Virus genome (UHGV): UHGV-1390708
Length of the DNA: 40,460 bases
Reading direction: 5' to 3' (one strand)
Source: a virus
The notes beneath the pieces are model-generated. The model was not told the DNA's origin. It worked only from the letters and a program-made list of their open reading frames with translations, and ran no database searches. The translations under genes and the position numbers were made by a program. This document shows positions 1 through 40,460 of this stretch, piece by piece (the first letter of the stretch is position 1; every line of letters starts with the position of its first letter).

Positions 1-423
1 GTGCGATTTTGCTTAGAGTCCGAAGACTGGGGTGCCTTAAGGAATTGTCTATGACTCATCAAGTACCATGGACTTAGGGTTTGATAGGAGGGTTCATTAG
101 GAGGGGAAAAATAACAGGATAGTTGCTTGTCACGGGGTTAAGGACTCTCAAATAGTAGATCAAAACCGTGGTCCTACATCAAATAGGCCGACGTCACCAG
201 TGGCGGGGCAGCAGTATTACGATTCAACATTAGGGCTGCCTATTTGGTGGAATTCAGTTAGCGGCACATGGAAGAGAGCAGATGGTGTAGATGCATAACA
301 GAAAACTGGTGAAAATTCACCCGTGTGTTTAATCCAAGCCTCAATCGATCGATACTTGCGGTAGTTGATGAGAAAAACTCTGGCACACAAAGCTTTGCGC
401 TATTCGAAGGTGGTTAAAGCTGA

Positions 424-1581
424 TCACTCCACCTTTTCATCAAGCCAGTCCGCCCACCACTGCATCATTTCTCTGCGCTTATCGAGATACTGAGCATGGT
501 TGTAAATTCCGCGCACAGATCCGCCGTTGGCATGTGCAAGTTGCACTTCAATAGCATCAGCAGGCCATTCGTGCTCGTTCATAATCGTGCTGAATTCATG
601 CCTGAATCCGTGACCGCTTTCCAGGCCCTCATAGCCGATTCGTTTGATCACAAGTAATACCGCGTTCTCGCAGATTGGCTTCTTCTTATCGTTGCGCCCG
701 GAAAAAACAAACTCTGATACTTGTTTGGTGATTGAGCTTAGCGTAGTGAGAAGTTCAATCACCTGGTCTGACATAGGAACAACATGAATTTTGCGTCCCT
801 TCATCACACTGGCGTCGATGGTGATAATCCTGTTTTCAAAATCGACGTTCTTCCATTGCATGGAGCGAAGCTCTTTCGTTCTTAGGGCTGTGTAGCGTAA
901 AACTTTGGTCGCAATGAGCGATACGATACTTCCTGAAAATGTTGCCAGTGCTTTGTTGAATGCCGGGATCTGGTCGGCAGGTAAAAATGGGAAGTTCTTC
1001 TTGCGGTATCCCTTCATGGCGTCTGCAAGGTCAGGTGCCGGGTTGTATTTAGCCCTTCCGGTGACAATAGCGTAACGGAAAACTTCGCCGCATCTTCTGC
1101 GGGCTTTGTTGGCTCGCTCCATTGCACCGCGATCTTCAAACCTGCGGATTACTTCCAGCAGTTGCATCGGCTCAATATCCTGAATCTCAAGACCGCCGAT
1201 GATGGGTAAAATGTCGTCATCAAACATTTTGGCAAGTTCAGTCGCATAGCCTACTGACCAGACTTGCTTCTTGTGCTCGTACCATTCTTTGTAAATCGCA
1301 CTAAAGGAATTGTTGTTAGACGAAGCCTTTTTCGCCTTTACCGGATCGATGCCAACCGAGATGTCTTTCCTCGCAGTCCATGCCTTATCCCTTGCCTCCT
1401 GCAAAGTCATTAGCGGATATTTTCCTACGGTCAGGACTTTCTCCTTACCGTCAATCTTGTAGCGAAGCTGCCATACCTTTTTCCCGGATACAGGGACATA
1501 AAGGTACAGGCCATTACCATCTAGAAGGCGGTATGGTTTTTCTTTCGGCTTTGCTGCTTCAATCTGCTTAACGGTGAGCAT
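424..1581 (-). CDS. int: Tyrosine integrase, P4/IntS-like. It is 385 aa from the Met at 1581; the track ORF extends to 1617.
   Basis: N-terminus MLTVKQIEAAKPKEKPYRLLDGNGLYLYV is a DUF4102-type arm-binding domain. The C-terminal catalytic region contains HGFRHEFST. It lies about 160 nt from an argW-type att core. Length and start fit my recollection of KplE1 IntS. Confidence 0.9.
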   Translation of the reverse strand: MLTVKQIEAAKPKEKPYRLLDGNGLYLYVPVSGKKVWQLRYKIDGKEKVLTVGKYPLMTLQEARDKAWTARKDISVGIDPVKAKKASSNNNSFSAIYKEWYEHKKQVWSVGYATELAKMFDDDILPIIGGLEIQDIEPMQLLEVIRRFEDRGAMERANKARRRCGEVFRYAIVTGRAKYNPAPDLADAMKGYRKKNFPFLPADQIPAFNKALATFSGSIVSLIATKVLRYTALRTKELRSMQWKNVDFENRIITIDASVMKGRKIHVVPMSDQVIELLTTLSSITKQVSEFVFSGRNDKKKPICENAVLLVIKRIGYEGLESGHGFRHEFSTIMNEHEWPADAIEVQLAHANGGSVRGIYNHAQYLDKRREMMQWWADWLDEKVE

Positions 1582-4781: not shown

Positions 4782-4942
4782 TTTTTCCCACTCCTCCACA
4801 TCGCATTCAGATATTTGTTGTCATTAACAGAACCGAAACTATTTCTCTTAAGAAATTCCTCTCTCGATGGCATTGGCTTTACGCGTTGGCGAATAATCAT
4901 TTCTGCCGGAAGAATGCCGGGATTGTATGCAAGTCCTCTCAT
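4778..4942 (-). CDS. Hypothetical small protein, 54 aa ([34 protein letters not shown]...).
   Basis: It has ATGA overlaps at both ends and fills an otherwise empty gap. It is under 60 aa, so it is absent from the track. Confidence 0.45.
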
Positions 4943-5229
4943 GATTTACTCTCCACGAACTTGTCAATAGCCATGCTAAGTGACACACCTAAAGTCTCGA
5001 TATGTTGCTGAATATCCTGTAGCGTCTGCGCCTGAGATAACAGGATTTCACGGTTGCATAACTCTTTGACCAGATGCTCAAACTTGCTGTAATAACCGAT
5101 ACGACTTAGTGTTTCTTTCCCTGCATTCTCGCCTTCTTTGATAATTCCTCTTTCGCTAAGAATCAGGTCGTGTTTGGTTCCGGTAATAACGTATTTTCCG
5201 AGGTCGATGTTTAGCTTCATTGTTTTCAT
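4939..5229 (-). CDS. Hypothetical early protein, 96 aa from [13 protein letters not shown].
   Basis: GAGGA Shine-Dalgarno sequence upstream of the ATG at 5229. The longer track ORF would overlap the upstream gene. Confidence 0.6.
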
Positions 5230-5239
5230 TGTTAATTCC

Positions 5240-5536
5240 TCAGTCATTACTGATAGCGCCATAGCGTGAGCGGTAATTACGCAGGCGTGGGTCGATATAT
5301 TCAGGGAAGTGGGTATATGTGGCTTTGCGGAATGGTCGGATTGATGTCTGGTAAATTCGCTCTCGTTCTTCTTTCTCTGCAAGCCATATACAGTGGCGAA
5401 ATTCCTTTTCCTCTTTCGTTTCCTGCGGTAGCGACATTATCCGATCGTAGTTTTTTCTGAATTTATCCAGCACCTCCGATACGGAATTGCCGGAACAGCG
5501 GCGCGGGTCATCCGCACCATACAGAGGCGCTGGCAT
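5240..5536 (-). CDS. Hypothetical 98-aa protein. Its size and its position next to the recombination module fit P22 Abc2 (anti-RecBCD), but this is unverified.
   Basis: AAGGA Shine-Dalgarno sequence. It lies downstream of erf and ssb in the pL operon. The function is from recollection only. Confidence 0.35.
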   Translation of the reverse strand: MPAPLYGADDPRRCSGNSVSEVLDKFRKNYDRIMSLPQETKEEKEFRHCIWLAEKEERERIYQTSIRPFRKATYTHFPEYIDPRLRNYRSRYGAISND

Positions 5537-5559
5537 AATTAAATCCTTATTTTTCTAAA

Positions 5560-5943
5560 TCAGAATGGGATGGAATCGTCGTATACAGGAGTGTTCTGCT
5601 GGTTACTACTTTGCTGCTGCGGGCCATTTCCTGAAGCTGCAAATCCAATCTTTGCATTCAGTAATTCAAGAGTGATTGATTGACCATTTTGCCCCTGATA
5701 AACATCAACCCTGATGTTTTCTCCGGTAATTTCCACAATGCCACCTTCAACAAGAACACTACGGTAGTAATCCGCTTGCGCTCCCGGCTTGGCAAATACA
5801 ACGGCGCTGTAGTTTGTCCATTCTTTCTTTTTTGTCTGGCGATCGTAATACTGAACGCCAGCACGGATGTTGAATCCGATATTTTCCCCGGCCTGAAACT
5901 CTCTTGCGGGCTTGTTTAGTCTTACAGTAATCGAATGTGCCAT
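5560..5943 (-). CDS. ssb: Short single-stranded DNA-binding protein, 127 aa, with an acidic C-terminal tip DDSIPF.
   Basis: Gln/Ser-rich linker followed by a ...VYDDSIPF tail, like E. coli SSB DDDIPF. TAATG junction with erf. Confidence 0.65.
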   Translation of the reverse strand: MAHSITVRLNKPAREFQAGENIGFNIRAGVQYYDRQTKKKEWTNYSAVVFAKPGAQADYYRSVLVEGGIVEITGENIRVDVYQGQNGQSITLELLNAKIGFAASGNGPQQQSSNQQNTPVYDDSIPF

Positions 5944-35428: not shown

Positions 35429-35758
35429 TTAGTCATCCATGGATGGATTGAGCTTATCTCGTGTTGATGTGGCAATTTTACCAACATTTTTCAACCAAGA
35501 TTTTAAGAAGGATATGTCGTCCTTAATATCATGAATATCCTCATTCTTTATACGATCAACCTTATCCTCTAGGCTCTCTATAGAACGCTCAATGCTAGAC
35601 AGAGAGATTTTTAAGTCTCCTTGCTCACGTTCCAGTGAGGATTTGAGAGCACAATATTCGTTTTCTAGAATTCCTATTTTTTTTGTTAGAGAGTGCATTC
35701 GATACTCATACACCAAACTAGAAACGACTAATGCAGCCAACAGAAACCATTCAAGCAC
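35429..35758 (-). CDS. Membrane-anchored coiled-coil protein, 109 aa, in the sieA position. GTG start.
   Basis: AAGGAGG Shine-Dalgarno sequence 5 nt before the GTG at 35758. TM segment LEWFLLAALVVSSLVY followed by heptad-like charged helices. AT-rich. The longer track ORF would overlap the next gene. Confidence 0.6.
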   Translation of the reverse strand: MLEWFLLAALVVSSLVYEYRMHSLTKKIGILENEYCALKSSLEREQGDLKISLSSIERSIESLEDKVDRIKNEDIHDIKDDISFLKSWLKNVGKIATSTRDKLNPSMDD

Positions 35759-35788
35759 ACCAACCTCCTTAGTTTTGCGCAGGATACC

Positions 35789-36154
35789 ATGAAAAAAGTT
35801 AACATTGGAAACGTACCAAAAATGCTCGTTCCGCTCTTTGAGAGCGGTACAATTGTGTTTTGTAGAGACTTTCCAGAATGGCAACGCCTGCATCAAAAAC
35901 TTGGTGTGGACGTGCAGGACTCGGATGCCAACGGAGCGTCTCATACAATGAGCAGCGAGAATGGTGTTTTGCATGTGATAGGCGTGTTCAATGGCAAACT
36001 ATCTACTATTGCCCATGAGTGCGCTCACATGGCATTCGATATCTGCTCAAGGGTCGGTGTTGATGTTGAACCAGGAAGAGCCAACGAGACTTACTGCTAC
36101 TTAATGAGCAGGCTTGTTGAGTTCTGCGAGCGACATATCAAAAAGCCGGAGTGA
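35789..36154 (+). CDS. Mini HExxH zinc-metallopeptidase-like protein, 121 aa.
   Basis: GVFNGKLSTIAHECAHMAFD, with HECAH at 36014-28, resembles the ImmA/IrrE (M78) active-site segment. A downstream Glu (ANETYCY) is present. Confidence 0.5.
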   Translation: MKKVNIGNVPKMLVPLFESGTIVFCRDFPEWQRLHQKLGVDVQDSDANGASHTMSSENGVLHVIGVFNGKLSTIAHECAHMAFDICSRVGVDVEPGRANETYCYLMSRLVEFCERHIKKPE

Positions 36155-36167
36155 CCCGGCTTGATTA

Positions 36168-36347
36168 TTACTTTTTGCTGTCTGGAGTTCGCTTATCTAA
36201 TACCCAGCCATGACCTGGCTTTGTTGTTGGTGGAAGCCTTTCGTTGTCCTTGACGGTGGCAAAATTGTCTTTCTTACCGCCGCGCGGGCCAACTTCTTGG
36301 TATATTCCGCCGTTTTTTCCTGTGTTTTCACCTGGTTTTTTCGCCAT
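36168..36347 (-). CDS. YjzC-like small protein, 59 aa from MAKKPGENTGKNGGIYQEVGPRGG.
   Basis: GAGG Shine-Dalgarno sequence. The motif pattern PGE..P.NGIY.EVG..G is YjzC-like. It has its own promoter-like sequence and a terminator hairpin. Confidence 0.5.
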   Translation of the reverse strand: MAKKPGENTGKNGGIYQEVGPRGGKKDNFATVKDNERLPPTTKPGHGWVLDKRTPDSKK

Positions 36348-36427
36348 GATATACCTCAACATGCACTCGTTATTGGGCGATTAAATATTGATCTCATTTT
36401 ATGAGTAGTCAATATGGTCCAAAAAAG

Positions 36428-36462
36428 GCAAAAATTAACCCACCTTCAGGTGGGTTTTTTGT
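36428..36462. terminator. Bidirectional-looking hairpin terminator at the 3' end of the first Mnt-like gene.
   Basis: AACCCACC-ttca-GGTGGGTT flanked by T-runs on both strands. Confidence 0.6.
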
Positions 36463-36766
36463 TTAGCAGTTCTCTCAACTTTTCGTTCTGCTCTCTGAAC
36501 TTTTCCTGTATTTCTTTTTGCATGGCGATAACCTGGGCTTGAAGTTGAACTAGCGCATCAACATTTAGCGGAACCGAGACGCTGTTGATTTTATCTGCTA
36601 TTTCCCCGAGTGTATTTTCTGCATTCAAGGCATCTTCCAGTATCTGAACAATCTCTGAGTTCATTGATCTGCCGTTACGTTTGGCTCGTTCAGCTATAGC
36701 ATCCCGCATTCCTGCAGGAAGCCTGATATTGAACCTATCCATTTCATGACTAGGGAACTTGCTCAT
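36446..36766 (-). CDS. Mnt-like ribbon-helix-helix repressor with a C-terminal coiled coil, 106 aa.
   Basis: FNIRLPAGMRDAIAERAKRNGRSMNSEIVQILEDAL is an Arc/Mnt RHH signature. It is divergent from the Arc-like and ant genes. Confidence 0.75.
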   Translation of the reverse strand: MSKFPSHEMDRFNIRLPAGMRDAIAERAKRNGRSMNSEIVQILEDALNAENTLGEIADKINSVSVPLNVDALVQLQAQVIAMQKEIQEKFREQNEKLRELLNKKPT

Positions 36767-36808
36767 ATGACCTCAACGTAAAGATGTTCGCTAAACAATA
36801 GCACCAAC

Positions 36809-36850
36809 TTGACATCAAAATAAATGGTGTTAAATTGGTTCTAGAACCAA
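36809..36850 (+). promoter_or_regulatory. Pant-like promoter (-35 TTGACA at 36809-14, -10 TAAATT at 36831-36) with a 16-bp perfect palindromic operator, TTGGTTCTAGAACCAA (36835-36850).
   Basis: Read directly. The spacer is 16 nt, and the palindrome overlaps the -10 element and the start site. Confidence 0.65.
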
Positions 36851-36877
36851 GTTGGTATCATTATAGGAGGATTACTT

Positions 36878-37051
36878 ATGAAAGATGTGCTTTACACAGG
36901 TCGTAAAAGTCAAAGTTTTCAGCTTCGTTTGCCAGCGCGAATGAAGGAGGAGATTAGACGTGTTGCTGAAATGGATGGAATTTCTATCAACTCTGCGATT
37001 GTGCAGCGACTGGCTAAAAGCCTGAGAGAGGAAAGAGCTAATGCCCAGTAA
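36878..37051 (+). CDS. arc: Arc-like ribbon-helix-helix repressor, 57 aa (under 60 aa, so absent from the track).
   Basis: MKDVLYTGRKSQSFQLRLPARMKEEIRRVAEMDGISINSAIVQRLAKSLREERANAQ. AGGAGG Shine-Dalgarno sequence upstream. Confidence 0.75.
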   Translation: MKDVLYTGRKSQSFQLRLPARMKEEIRRVAEMDGISINSAIVQRLAKSLREERANAQ

Positions 37052-37120
37052 AAATAGTGAAGCCCAGCAGTGCGCGAACACAAACTGGGCCTCTATGTCA
37101 GTAACCGTATGCAAGGAAAC
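37052..37120 (-). ncRNA. Candidate sar-like antisense RNA covering the ant ribosome-binding site.
   Basis: Minus-strand promoter with -35 TTGTAA (37148-53) and -10 TATTCA (37126-31), 16-nt spacer. The hairpin GCCCAG...CTGGGC (37062-37090) is followed on the minus strand by a T-rich run. Confidence 0.4.
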
Positions 37121-37124
37121 TAAC

Positions 37125-37751
37125 ATGAATATTGTAGCAAAATCAGATTACAACTTCCACGGAGTTGAGTTGGTGCCCACCCGTGATATGCATGGTGTTT
37201 GGTTTACATCATCTAATATTGCATCTGCACTTAAATACGCAAATAGTCGTGCAGTAACAATGATTTATAACAAGTATAGCGATGAGTTTAGCGCCGGAAT
37301 GACTCAGGTACTCGAAGTGAGTACCTCAGGAAATTATCGCAAAAAAGTGCGAGTTTTCTCACTACGCGGTGCCCACCTAATCGCGATGTTTGCTCGCACT
37401 CCGGTAGCCAAAGAGTTCCGCCGCTGGGTGCTGGATATTTTGGATCGGCAGGCAGAATGCTCACCGATTGCAAAACAGTTTACTGACGAAGAACTGGTTA
37501 ATCTCTGCTACTTACAATTGTGGATGGAGAAGAGTCAACAAATGTGCAAACACATCTACCCAGGAATGAAGCAAATTGGTTCTGAGCTTTCAGGAAGGAT
37601 TTACGATATTGCATATGAGACTCGCTACATGTCAGAAGAAACCAAGAAATCACTTCTTCGTGAAATGAAGAATCTTGATACCAACAATTTTGTCGTAAAG
37701 AACGCTCAGCCAATACTGGCAAAACTGCGCGGCGAGGAATGGATTCATTGA
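37125..37751 (+). CDS. ant: Antirepressor with a Bro-N domain, 208 aa from MNIVAKSDY.
   Basis: FHGVELVPTRDMHGVWFTSSNIASALKY...LRGAHLIAMFARTPVAKEFRRWVLDIL is Bro-N. AAGGA Shine-Dalgarno sequence. Confidence 0.75.
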   Translation: MNIVAKSDYNFHGVELVPTRDMHGVWFTSSNIASALKYANSRAVTMIYNKYSDEFSAGMTQVLEVSTSGNYRKKVRVFSLRGAHLIAMFARTPVAKEFRRWVLDILDRQAECSPIAKQFTDEELVNLCYLQLWMEKSQQMCKHIYPGMKQIGSELSGRIYDIAYETRYMSEETKKSLLREMKNLDTNNFVVKNAQPILAKLRGEEWIH

Positions 37752-37770
37752 TTGGTGCGCCGGACGGCGC

Positions 37771-37801
37771 AAAAAGAAAACCGCCAGTGTGCTGCTGGCG
37801 G
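37771..37801 (-). terminator. Minus-strand-oriented hairpin plus T-run between the two ant-like genes.
   Basis: The minus strand reads CCGCCAG-cagcaca-CTGGCGG followed by TTTTCTTTTT. Confidence 0.4.
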
Positions 37802-37839
37802 CCTATGTCACACCCTTACTACCACATAAGGAATGCCTA

Positions 37840-38565
37840 ATGACTTTTAAGAATGTAGCAAACATCGGATCCGTTGTCACGGATAAAACCATTGACAGCC
37901 AAAGTCTTCTGATGATGGTTAATGAAGCTCGCAAGTTATGTGGAGAGCCATCAGTACGTAACAACAAATTCATCGAGAAAATTGAGGATGAATTGGAGGG
38001 CGAGACCTACACAAAAAGTGTAGGTCGGAAAAACGGGGCTGACATTGATGTTATCTCCATGACTATCAAGCAGGCGCTTCGTGTTGCTGCTCGCGAATCT
38101 AAAGCAGTTCGCCGAACACTTGTAGACAAACTTGAAAGTATGCAGGAAGCACACATTAAAAGCGGTAAATCAGCGAGTGGACTTGTTGAGTATCGTCAAG
38201 CGCGAACATTGAAAATGACGGTTGAAGCTGTTACCAATCTGTTCGATCTGATGCCAAATCTTGCGCCTGAGGCAAAGCAGACTGCGGCAGCAAGCATAAT
38301 CAACCCGATCGTTGGTTTTAATGCAATACCTCTTCCAGCAATAGAAGAGCATTACTACTCAGCAGGGGAGGTTGCAGAGCAGCTTGGAGTAACGGCCAAC
38401 AAGATTGGTCGCATTGCTAACGCAAACAACCTCAAAACTGAGCAGTACGGCAAGTTCTTCCTAGATAAATCTGCGCATTCCAGCAAACAGGTAGAGGCGT
38501 TCCGCTACAATGCGGAAGGTGTTAAAGCACTACAACACCTGATTCATGGGAGTAATGTTGCATAA
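37840..38565 (+). CDS. Second antirepressor-like / phage regulatory protein, 241 aa from MTFKNVANIG.
   Basis: AAGGA Shine-Dalgarno sequence. The C-terminal YYSAGEVAEQLGVTANKIGRIANANNL is HTH-like. The family assignment is uncertain. Confidence 0.4.
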   Translation: MTFKNVANIGSVVTDKTIDSQSLLMMVNEARKLCGEPSVRNNKFIEKIEDELEGETYTKSVGRKNGADIDVISMTIKQALRVAARESKAVRRTLVDKLESMQEAHIKSGKSASGLVEYRQARTLKMTVEAVTNLFDLMPNLAPEAKQTAAASIINPIVGFNAIPLPAIEEHYYSAGEVAEQLGVTANKIGRIANANNLKTEQYGKFFLDKSAHSSKQVEAFRYNAEGVKALQHLIHGSNVA

Positions 38566-38786
38566 TGGCAAAGAAAAAATATGGCATTATGCCGCCAAGA
38601 ATCAAAGGAAGAGCCAGGGTAAAAGGCGATGCTGGAAGGTATCACATTCTTGGAGTTCTGTGGCATGAGAGAGCTTTAATTTTAAGTAGACCTCATGGGT
38701 ACATTGAAAAGGTATCTATAGATAGAGTAGAGATTCTTCCCCTTACACCTGAAGAAGAAGAAACGTACGGACTTTTTGATAACTAA
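38565..38786 (+). CDS. Hypothetical basic protein, 73 aa.
   Basis: ATAATG junction with the preceding gene. A terminator follows. Confidence 0.5.
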   Translation: MAKKKYGIMPPRIKGRARVKGDAGRYHILGVLWHERALILSRPHGYIEKVSIDRVEILPLTPEEEETYGLFDN

Positions 38787-38793
38787 CCAACTA

Positions 38794-38820
38794 AACCCGC
38801 TTAATCGCGGGTTTTTTCTT
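38794..38820 (+). terminator. Intrinsic terminator at the convergent junction with mnt.
   Basis: AACCCGC-ttaatc-GCGGGTT followed by TTTTTCTTTT. Confidence 0.7.
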
Positions 38821-39058
38821 TTCTAAGGATATCAGCCACAACTTCTTTTACTCGTTCCGAGATTAATGAGGCCAGCCTCTCTTCTTCATCACGATACCCG
38901 CTTACAGGTGATGGTTTGGAGAGTGATTCTTCCATCGTAGCCACAATTTCGGAATTGATAGACCTGTTATTCATTTTTGCACGTTGCTTAATCTTAGCGT
39001 GCAACTCGTGCGTAAGCCTCAAGTGGAACTGCGCCTCATCGTATTTGCTGTACATCAT
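38801..39058 (-). CDS. mnt: Mnt repressor (P22-type RHH), 85 aa from MMYSKYDEAQFHLRL.
   Basis: RSINSEIVATMEESLSKPSPVSGYRDEEERLA closely parallels P22 Mnt ...SKPSPVTGYRNDAERLA as I recall it. GGTGAGG Shine-Dalgarno sequence. Confidence 0.8.
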   Translation of the reverse strand: MMYSKYDEAQFHLRLTHELHAKIKQRAKMNNRSINSEIVATMEESLSKPSPVSGYRDEEERLASLISERVKEVVADILRKEKTRD

Positions 39059-39190
39059 CAATGCCTCACCAAATGGGTGGAATGGCATCGTAAAACCTAC
39101 TGTACAAATCAACAATCGTACCATTTCGGTATGCAACAAACACCAACCGTAGCCATGCTGCGGCGATTCCTTGTATCTGGAGCAAATTAA

Positions 39191-40460
39191 ATGACAGATT
39201 CAATAAATGCCAATGTTGTAGTAAGCATGCCTTCGCAACTCTTCACTATGGCGCGTTCTTTTAAAGCGGTTGCCAATGGCAAAATTTATATCGGAAAAAT
39301 TGACACTGACCCGGTAAATCCTGAAAACCAGATTCAGGTTTATGTAGAGAACGAAGACGGTTCTCACGTTCCTGTTTCGCAACCAATCATCATTAACGCT
39401 GCTGGTTACCCAGTATATAACGGACAGATTGCCAAATTCGTAACTGTGCAAGGTCATTCGATGGCTGTTTATGATACGTACGGTGCGCAGCAGTTCTATT
39501 TTCCTAATGTGCTGAAGTATGACCCTGACCAGTTCCGGCAGGAGCTAGAGAGAGAGTTTGCAAGCGGGGCATTCCCTGAAACAGTAAAGTATAAGTATGG
39601 ATTACCATCTGTTGTTGATGGTGCCGTATACAGAACTGTTCAGGATAAGCTTGATGATTTTGTGTTCCTTGAGGATTTCGGAGGAAAAGACGACGGAGGT
39701 ATTACTGATAACTCTTTAGCATTTAAGAAGGCGTTTGCATCAGGTGCTAAGAAAATTTATCTCAGAGGATCTGGTGTTTATGCCATGGCTACTCGTGATA
39801 TTGAGTTGCCTGCCAGGTATGAAATTATAGGTAATGCAAAAAATCCAGAGATTAAATATCTAGGTTCTGATTCAACCTTCACTATGTTTACCCTTACAGG
39901 GTCTGGCCCGGCTGCTAGTCAGTGGAAACAGGGTGGCATCTTTAGGGATGTGATCATTTCATCTGATACAGTAATTAACTGGATGGTTTGCCGACATGTC
40001 CAGAACTTAGATTTCGACAGAGTGTACTTTTACAACTCAAGAACTTTAATGAACAACTATCACTATGTTAACTTCTTTAGATGTGAACGTTGGTCGAGCG
40101 GATTTGAAGGCAGATCAGACCTTAACACAGTAAATTTCATTAGCGAGTCTCCAAAATTTTTGATGTGCTTTAGCTCAAACTCACCTATAGATGTTTGGGA
40201 TACAGCAGACCTTAGTATCACTTTCTGCACCTTTTTTGCGGGAGATTATGCAGTACAGACTAAAGTTACTCTGGTATCGCCAACAGCGCTGGACCAATTT
40301 GCTGGATACCAGGTATTTATATCCAACTCTGTTTTTGATGCAGTTTCTGGTAGCGCATGGTTACTTAACGGCATTGCGTACGGATCTATCATTGGTAACT
40401 TTGTGTCATCTGGGCGTGATGCGACAGCTTCCGGTGCTGTTGTTGATGGTGTCCGTTCAA
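39191..40460 (+). CDS. Tailspike, 3'-truncated by the window end. It has a P22/HK620-type N-terminal head-binding domain and a divergent beta-helix receptor-binding domain.
   Basis: [60 protein letters not shown]. The frame was checked by hand and is open to position 40460. [23 protein letters not shown] is a pectate-lyase-fold entry motif. Confidence 0.9.

Follow-up and report, generated by a model that had tools for sequence, protein, structure and literature searches.

hkcC of P22-like phages encodes a predicted minimal Glu-zincin metallopeptidase from a large, uncharacterized phage family

What is a short gene with a zinc protease motif doing between the ejection protein and tailspike genes of P22-like phages? 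The question is raised by UHGV virus genome UHGV-1390708, a stretch of 40,460 nucleotides (the window) that belongs to an Escherichia coli P22-like (Lederbergvirus) phage or prophage and is nearest, when virion and right-arm genes are compared, to CUS-3 (96%) and HK620 (92%). An original prediction, made from the sequence alone, had singled out a 121-amino-acid (aa) open reading frame (ORF) with an HExxH motif, likened it to the ImmA/IrrE (M78) anti-repressor proteases, noted Arc/Mnt repressors next to it, and suggested that, beside a P22-type immI region, it could be a proteolytic antirepressor or a counter-defense enzyme. The ORF is exactly as described in sequence and coordinates: it runs from an ATG, with an AGGA Shine-Dalgarno sequence 4 nt ahead, through 121 codons and a stop, and its product is 100% identical to that of coliphage HK620 gene hkcC, labelled "unknown." We conclude that HkcC is most likely a zincin with Glu-zincin chemistry, in a family of its own whose closest affinities are with SprT-like proteins rather than M78. 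What is new is the recognition of a conserved, predicted minimal Glu-zincin, the large uncharacterized phage family to which it belongs, separate from both M78 and SprT-like proteins, and a recurrent cassette that joins it to a small convergent gene, orf59a.

The size and conservation of this family carry much of the argument. HkcC matches the profile of PHROG 1365, a family of unknown function, over its full length (E = 1.4e-39). The same profile matches 121 of 121 divergent relatives, none of which receives an NCBIfam name. A word-indexed search reached homologues as distant as 43% identity, from Escherichia, Klebsiella, Rosenbergiella, and metagenomes, and an exhaustive profile search covering 1.84 billion cluster representatives recovered 547 clusters (50% identity level) at E <= 1e-3, with 151 at E <= 1e-10. 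Nearly all members found in this way are standalone proteins of 110 to 130 aa, and the longer ones (155 to 283 aa), when scanned for fused domains, had no Pfam domains. Of the 145 new cluster representatives checked, 141 carry the HExxH motif, with (N/G/D)-E-x-[FY]-[CA]-Y-L 17 to 21 residues further on. Only five columns, G49, H76, E77, H80, and E100, are invariant in the family alignment (121 sequences, 23 to 77% identity to the query). Compared with nine homologues, hkcC has saturated synonymous differences (pS, 0.76 to 0.95) and far fewer nonsynonymous ones (pN, 0.25 to 0.45), indicating purifying selection. Because the motif is invariant, the protein falls in a PHROG family, and its sequence is kept despite saturation at synonymous sites, these comparisons argue that hkcC is a genuine gene and that its HExxH did not arise by chance.

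No second hkcC paralogue was found in the window. When ST160, SE1, UAB_Phi20, ST-35, and SW-70 were searched with HkcC by tblastn, each genome gave two places, probably hkcC at the gene 16/9 junction and an orf129-type paralogue (~38% identity) beyond the lysis genes. If this reading is correct, some phages carry two PHROG 1365 members.

The predicted structure points to a zincin. An AlphaFold2 model built from an 18-sequence alignment (predicted local distance difference test score, 89.2; predicted template modeling score, 0.83) has strands at residues 11 to 13 and 21 to 25, a helix at 28 to 37, a hairpin at 49 to 56/59 to 66, a helix at 71 to 89 that bears HExxH, and a helix at 100 to 116 that begins at E100. 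The chain ends 21 residues past E100, and no conserved His follows HExxH. A family-conserved HExxH thus lies on a predicted alpha-helix, as in zincins generally (clan MA), and the predicted third ligand is a Glu at the start of the next helix, as in the Glu-zincins (subclan MA(E)). The minimal zincin core has been described as a small sheet with one helix beside it, the helix that bears HEXXH, and a further helix that supplies the Glu, with two His, the Glu, and a water binding zinc and the motif Glu acting as general base (PMC5512222). HkcC is predicted to have this layout of sheet, backing helix, HExxH helix, and Glu helix, so the earlier description of a mini-zincin with a downstream Glu as candidate third ligand is supported by both the invariant residues and the model.

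Because the general-base residue, Glu77, is strictly invariant beside the three ligands, catalysis is favored over mere metal binding, and we consider it very probable that HkcC is a zincin-fold metallopeptidase with catalytic activity. HkcC would be a soluble, cytoplasmic, single-domain zinc enzyme consisting of the minimal zincin core. H76, H80, and E100 would hold one Zn2+, and E77 would activate the zinc-bound water for attack on a substrate peptide bond. The substrate may lie along the edge strand or hairpin that starts at the invariant G49, a role suggested for residues 49 to 66 by general zincin architecture.

Four cysteines, C25, C78, C86, and C103, are invariant inside the hkcC clade, and family-wide only C103 is common, as part of an NE.[FY]CYL motif. 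C86 is six residues past H80, the position of the third His in SprT/Wss1-type enzymes. These clade cysteines could make up an additional metal site or serve as a redox "cysteine switch."

Comparison with known zincins places HkcC in a structural class and, in our reading, in a family of its own. Scans with Pfam, NCBIfam, and PADLOC returned nothing meaningful, and matches to lantibiotic families were rejected as spurious, being caused by the Cys/His-rich motif. In a phmmer search of the PDB, Bacillus neutral protease and thermolysin ranked on top, at nonsignificant E values (0.1 to 0.7). The ungapped alignment sets H76/E77/H80 against H142/E143/H146 and E100 against the third ligand E166, with the same 20-residue spacing from H80 to E100 as from H146 to E166 and a shared NE at the third ligand. 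The M4 enzymes differ from HkcC in being secreted, in their size (~316 aa), and in having large additional subdomains. The family profile likewise matched only zincins in the PDB (myroilysin, the astacin-type BMP1/TLL1, and thermolysin), again without significance (E = 0.12 to 1.6).

The closest parallels in architecture are the mini-Glu-zincins proabylysin and projannalysin (provisional MEROPS family M95) and the minimal metallopeptidase core of Iyer et al. 2017. These share with HkcC a length of ~105 to 125 aa, a soluble standalone form, and a glutamate helix that gives the third ligand, so that HkcC, at ~120 aa, parallels the "mini-Glu-zincin" concept (PMC3890501). The match is one of structural class and is not evidence for common descent. 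Acel_2062, another mini-zincin (DUF1025; PDB 3e11), belongs to the Asp-zincins and carries HEXXHXXGXXD (PMC3890501), a motif that HkcC lacks; HkcC has a distal Glu instead.

Between M78 and SprT-like proteins, the signals lean toward the latter. Pfam PF06114 (Peptidase_M78) matches 0 of 121 family members at E <= 0.1, although it readily finds a positive control, the 122-aa Sfi21 orf122 that adjoins a cI-like repressor gene (6e-14). PF10263 (SprT-like) does not match the HkcC protein of the window, and it matches 18 of 121 family members weakly and below threshold (best E, 1e-4). Alignment of the hkcC family by hhalign with Sfi21 orf122 or an M78 profile covered just 15 to 16 columns around HExxH (11 to 12% probability), while alignment with E. 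coli SprT or its profile kept 77 to 81 columns in register (6 to 11% probability); both comparator profiles were shallow (>=75% identity; top 120 matches), which makes these weak negatives that complement the Pfam scans. No M78 chain appeared in sequence or profile searches of the PDB with HkcC. The resemblance to M78 that the original prediction saw is real at the level of an HExxH with a downstream Glu ligand, in small phage-encoded members (CapP and Sfi21 orf122 belong to this family) on mobile elements, but it does not extend to a profile match.

A structural search with Foldseek gave a mixed answer. Against the PDB there was no match at E <= 1e-3, and SPRTN (6mdx; probability 0.51) was the sole zincin among the top matches. 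Against predicted viral structures (BFVD), 27 phage proteins matched at E <= 1e-3, with TM scores up to 0.83, from phages of Pseudomonas, Ralstonia, Achromobacter, Erwinia, Serratia, and Eggerthella, crAss-like phages, and others. Nearly all of these are "uncharacterized"; those with names are "SprT-like" (6e-5 and 2.5e-4) or "Metalloprotease," and entries named "IrrE" reached only about 0.05.

Where the gene sits suggests when it is made. In P22, HK620, ST160, and the window, hkcC is located in the stretch that separates ejection-protein gene 16 from tailspike gene 9, on the strand of the late operon, and its immediate neighbors (sieA or hkcB, orf59a, and mnt) lie on the opposite strand. A tailspike gene follows hkcC in 80 of 80 viral-contig loci from IMG/VR, a set with hkcC at >=99% identity that is informative for flank statistics only. 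Other family members occupy other slots. In siphovirus-type prophages (Klebsiella oxytoca, Rosenbergiella, and metagenomes), homologues 57 to 63% identical share the orientation of their surroundings, with the tail tube/chaperone genes on one side and the tape-measure gene on the other. Phage L/ST64T orf129 (38% identity; 6e-45 against PHROG 1365) and the mEp554 homologue are placed where the lysis cassette meets the head/packaging genes, and the homologue in the N4-like phage phCDa leads a block of small ORFs. Across 20 diverse loci, 107 large neighboring ORFs are on the strand of the zincin gene and 12 are opposite.

Late expression of hkcC is probable because the gene is co-oriented with the late/structural operon, and the gene is taken as dispensable because its cassette is absent from BTP1 and a family member is found at another locus in phage L. 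We therefore think it fairly likely that hkcC is a late-expressed accessory gene. It would occupy a "moron slot," and read-through of the antiterminated late transcript would yield its product toward the end of the lytic cycle.

What such an enzyme would cut is the more tentative part of the proposal. A role in conflict is favored because hkcC is found in moron hotspots ringed by exclusion and immunity functions and because the family occurs in temperate and virulent phages alike; we hold a conflict-related target to be a reasonable suggestion, somewhat short of an even chance. The substrate would most likely be one particular protein of the host or of a rival element, giving HkcC a part in phage-host or phage-phage conflict, and the phage's own CI, Mnt, and Arc repressors are unlikely substrates. 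Taken as a whole, the reading of HkcC as a late-made, dispensable Glu-zincin peptidase that acts on a host or rival-element protein stands at slightly better than even in our judgment. Features of the locus that bear on this reading and on its alternatives are collected in Table 1.

Table 1. Coordinates of hkcC, its predicted functional elements, and neighboring features in the window
Feature	Position	Strand	Description
hkcC CDS	35789..36154	+	Minimal Glu-zincin-type predicted metallopeptidase, PHROG 1365
Predicted beta-hairpin	35933..35986	+	Residues 49-66 from invariant G49; presumed substrate-binding edge strands
HECAH	36014..36028	+	Residues 76-80; H76 and H80 predicted zinc ligands, E77 predicted general base
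A-N-E-T-Y	36080..36094	+	Start of ANETYCY; E100 at 36086..36088, predicted third zinc ligand, start of "glutamate helix"
P22 "P sieA" promoter equivalent	35789..35819	.	Mapped from AF527608 via 99.7% identity; predicted here
hkcB	35429..35758	-	109 aa, PHROG 5962, unknown function; P22 sieA slot
Bidirectional hairpin terminator	36143..36162	.	Serves hkcC and orf59a; overlaps hkcC stop; equals P22 t_mnt and HK620 tORF59A
orf59a/HkcD	36168..36347	-	59-aa YjzC-like, PHROG 3202; convergent with hkcC
Candidate sigma-70-like promoter	36384..36412	-	Upstream of orf59a; TTGACT-17-AATATT; consensus match only
First immI-like set, Mnt-like ribbon-helix-helix (RHH)	36446..36766	-	106 aa; Pfam Arc, E 1.6e-20
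First immI-like set, Arc-like RHH	36878..37051	+	57 aa; Pfam Arc, E 8.3e-12
First immI-like set, antirepressor	37041..37751	+	Bro-N/P22_AR_C
First immI-like set, 258-aa ORF	37789..38565	+	No Pfam match
Second immI-like set, Mnt homologue	~38822..39040	-	48% identical to P22 Mnt; just ahead of tailspike

The alternative that fares best makes hkcC one half of a two-gene module, in which HkcC acts on, or is restrained by, the product of the convergent orf59a. The resemblance of this product to YjzC is weak (Pfam E = 1.3e-3, below threshold). The two genes are separated by a gap of about 10 to 30 bp, and the pair, with its convergent arrangement and common terminator, is kept in 12 distinct loci, where hkcC identity falls as low as 43%; podovirus as well as siphovirus backbones carry it. 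Among INPHARED genomes, enterobacterial orf59a is confined to those that carry hkcC (52 records versus 53). orf59a comes with a promoter-like site and terminators of its own and is under strong purifying selection (pN/pS, 0.12 to 0.36); promoter-like sites in the region are no more numerous than expected from shuffled sequence. Orf59a could be a lysogen-expressed factor that is removed at lytic onset, or the two proteins could form a protease-inhibitor pair.

Against such a module, the two genes can come apart. In 11 of the 80 IMG/VR loci, all of one lineage, hkcC is intact and orf59a has given way to a gene for a membrane protein of 74 aa; the breakpoint falls precisely behind the terminator. 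A zincin gene occurs in the absence of orf59a in the orf129-type clade, mEp554, and phCDa, and YjzC-family genes of Firmicutes phages, which we inspected for an adjacent zincin, have none. We regard orf59a as the usual partner in the hkcC clade, but a separable one, and because the genes are separable their linkage could be mere co-inheritance of adjoining morons. A functional module is in our view unlikely. In its broadest form, PHROG 1365 would be a family of mini-Glu-zincin conflict weapons used by many kinds of phage that in the hkcC clade works as a unit with a convergent, lysogen-expressed YjzC-like protein; this is an equally long shot. If it were true, a late protease would degrade a factor made by the prophage, or be controlled by it, in a switch from lysogeny to lysis, or would cleave a host immunity protein.

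A YjzC-family gene of Clostridium phage phiCT9441A (locus L112, 2486..2653) lies antisense inside the head-morphogenesis operon with no zincin beside it, the same antisense-moron arrangement as that of enterobacterial orf59a.

A second alternative takes the SprT-like signal at face value and casts HkcC as a SprT/SPRTN/Wss1-like protease that attacks proteins bound or crosslinked to DNA while the genome is replicated or packaged. SprT-like is the sole recurrent Pfam signal in the family, and together with SPRTN and the SprT-like BFVD neighbors it provides the best of the subthreshold profile and fold matches (PF10263 covers SprT and SPRTN, with WLM/Wss1 related); the small N-terminal zincin subdomain of these enzymes has its elements in the same order as HkcC. 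Every one of these signals is below significance. SprT, SPRTN, and Wss1 use His as the third zinc ligand, whereas HkcC has an invariant Glu on the next helix. E. coli SprT also bears Zn_ribbon_SprT, but HkcC has neither a zinc ribbon nor a DNA-binding tail, and no DNA-metabolism genes lie near hkcC. We consider this function improbable, a little more so than the module.

Less probable still is a prophage defense or exclusion protease like Lit of prophage e14, one that the lysogen would express and a superinfecting phage would set off. The setting of hkcC is what suggests it. The region is a hotspot of exclusion functions, with sieA or hkcB upstream, small membrane proteins, a Rap1a protein, and, in BTP1, STnc6030, and there is a promoter-like site upstream. 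Yet hkcC reads with the late genes, all genes of the region known to be expressed in lysogens read the other way, the family is present in virulent phages too, and no PADLOC-DB defense model matched HkcC even at E <= 10.

The slot upstream of hkcC is variable in its own right. P22-type sieA occupies it in 12 of the 80 loci, hkcB in 7, and other genes in 61; at least three unrelated small genes in this position apparently use the same leader and the promoter inside hkcC. The hkcB of the window, 98% identical to that of HK620, encodes one predicted N-terminal transmembrane segment and a coiled-coil-like region, has no relationship with P22 SieA, and is a candidate gene for superinfection exclusion. 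An antisense 181-aa ORF (35429..35974, minus strand) that overlaps the first 186 nt of hkcC was rejected as an over-extended hkcB, since the family profile and the HK620 annotation put the real start near 35758. Locus L107, a P22-like metagenomic contig, has upstream of hkcC (209..562, minus strand) a gene for a Rap1a-domain protein (PF18602); Rap1a is a family of type VI secretion immunity proteins and an unusual cargo for this phage hotspot.

About as improbable as a Lit-like role is that HkcC binds metal without cutting proteins, as a structural or regulatory zinc pseudo-protease or as another kind of metalloenzyme. There are precedents, since mini-Glu-zincins gave no detectable activity (PMC3890501) and HExxH is known in non-peptidase enzymes (PMC13434306). 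The clade-invariant cysteines could also form another metal or redox site. The strict invariance of Glu77 beside three ligands is nevertheless a signature of catalysis, and the fold neighbors of HkcC are zincin peptidases.

The M78-type anti-repressor that was proposed for this ORF, an enzyme that would cleave CI or an Mnt-like or Arc-like repressor and so bring about induction or derepression of ant, is now very unlikely. The profile evidence given above runs against it, and so does the behavior of its supposed partners. Repressor genes are indeed close by: the window has two Pfam Arc matches, and two immI-like sets span 36446..39139, ahead of a tailspike gene that starts near 39191. They do not adjoin hkcC directly, because orf59a intervenes, and the strands differ. 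HK620 has an identical hkcC, yet its mnt and ant are reduced to remnants. Among the 80 loci, 12 have none of mnt, arc, and ant, ~26 have a Mnt-type gene only, and the rest have full modules. When one genome per species was considered (11 loci), only Proteus and Arsenophonus had an RHH or ant homologue within 5 kb, and most of the divergent homologues, among them those of siphovirus prophages and virulent N4-like phages, lack an RHH or repressor gene in their vicinity. hkcC is on the late strand and, in contrast to ImmA/ImmR-type pairs (the layout seen in Sfi21), forms no operon with a repressor gene; it also occurs where no repressor is found. hkcC is independent of immI, and the Arc/Mnt genes are dispensable neighbors.

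In locus L009, which belongs to the lineage that lacks orf59a, a 178-aa ORF (4893..5429, minus strand) lies directly downstream of a gene for a 78-aa Mnt-like RHH protein (5429..5665, minus strand), and the two sit between hkcC and the tailspike gene.

The gene has an uneven annotation history. hkcC is 99.7% identical at the nucleotide level to P22 and ~50 relatives, but the P22 records AF527608, BK000583, and NC_002371 have no coding sequence there; a gap is left between sieA and orf59a, in which "P sieA" covers the ORF's initial 31 nt and "t mnt" covers the stop codon. P sieA drives the minus-strand gene upstream and is located inside the 5' end of hkcC. HkcC matches the original P22 sequence, AF217253.1 (37336..37698), at just 71.9% and the corrected P22 sequences at 100%, so sequencing errors probably hid the ORF in the first P22 sequence, and the annotation appears never to have been revised afterwards. 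That the stretch is regulatory DNA only (P_sieA and t_mnt), as the P22 records imply, can be set aside almost entirely in view of those presumed errors, the confident AlphaFold2 fold, the saturated synonymous sites, and conservation of an invariant catalytic motif down to ~25% identity in 547 clusters. In other phages the gene has been in databases as "unknown" since 2001; it is auto-annotated as hypothetical in dozens of phages, and UAB_Phi20 lists it as "hkcC, 121 aa, Unknown" (PMC4837284). We found no published function for hkcC in the literature searched. The P22 ORFan pid was considered as a possible synonym and rejected, since it sits between orf25 and orf80.

P22 is among the best-studied phages, yet one of its stretches annotated as a gap with a promoter and a terminator holds what is probably a conserved, active zinc protease. 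For the group of P22, HK620, and CUS-3, hkcC would thus represent a testable accessory function. The family behind it, with at least 547 clusters in temperate and virulent phages, has no description in Pfam, NCBIfam, or the literature. If the substrate proves to be a host defense protein or a protein of a rival phage, HkcC would represent a new class of proteolytic countermeasure; otherwise, it would be another small zincin. In either case, four mutable catalytic residues provide a first functional handle on PHROG 1365.
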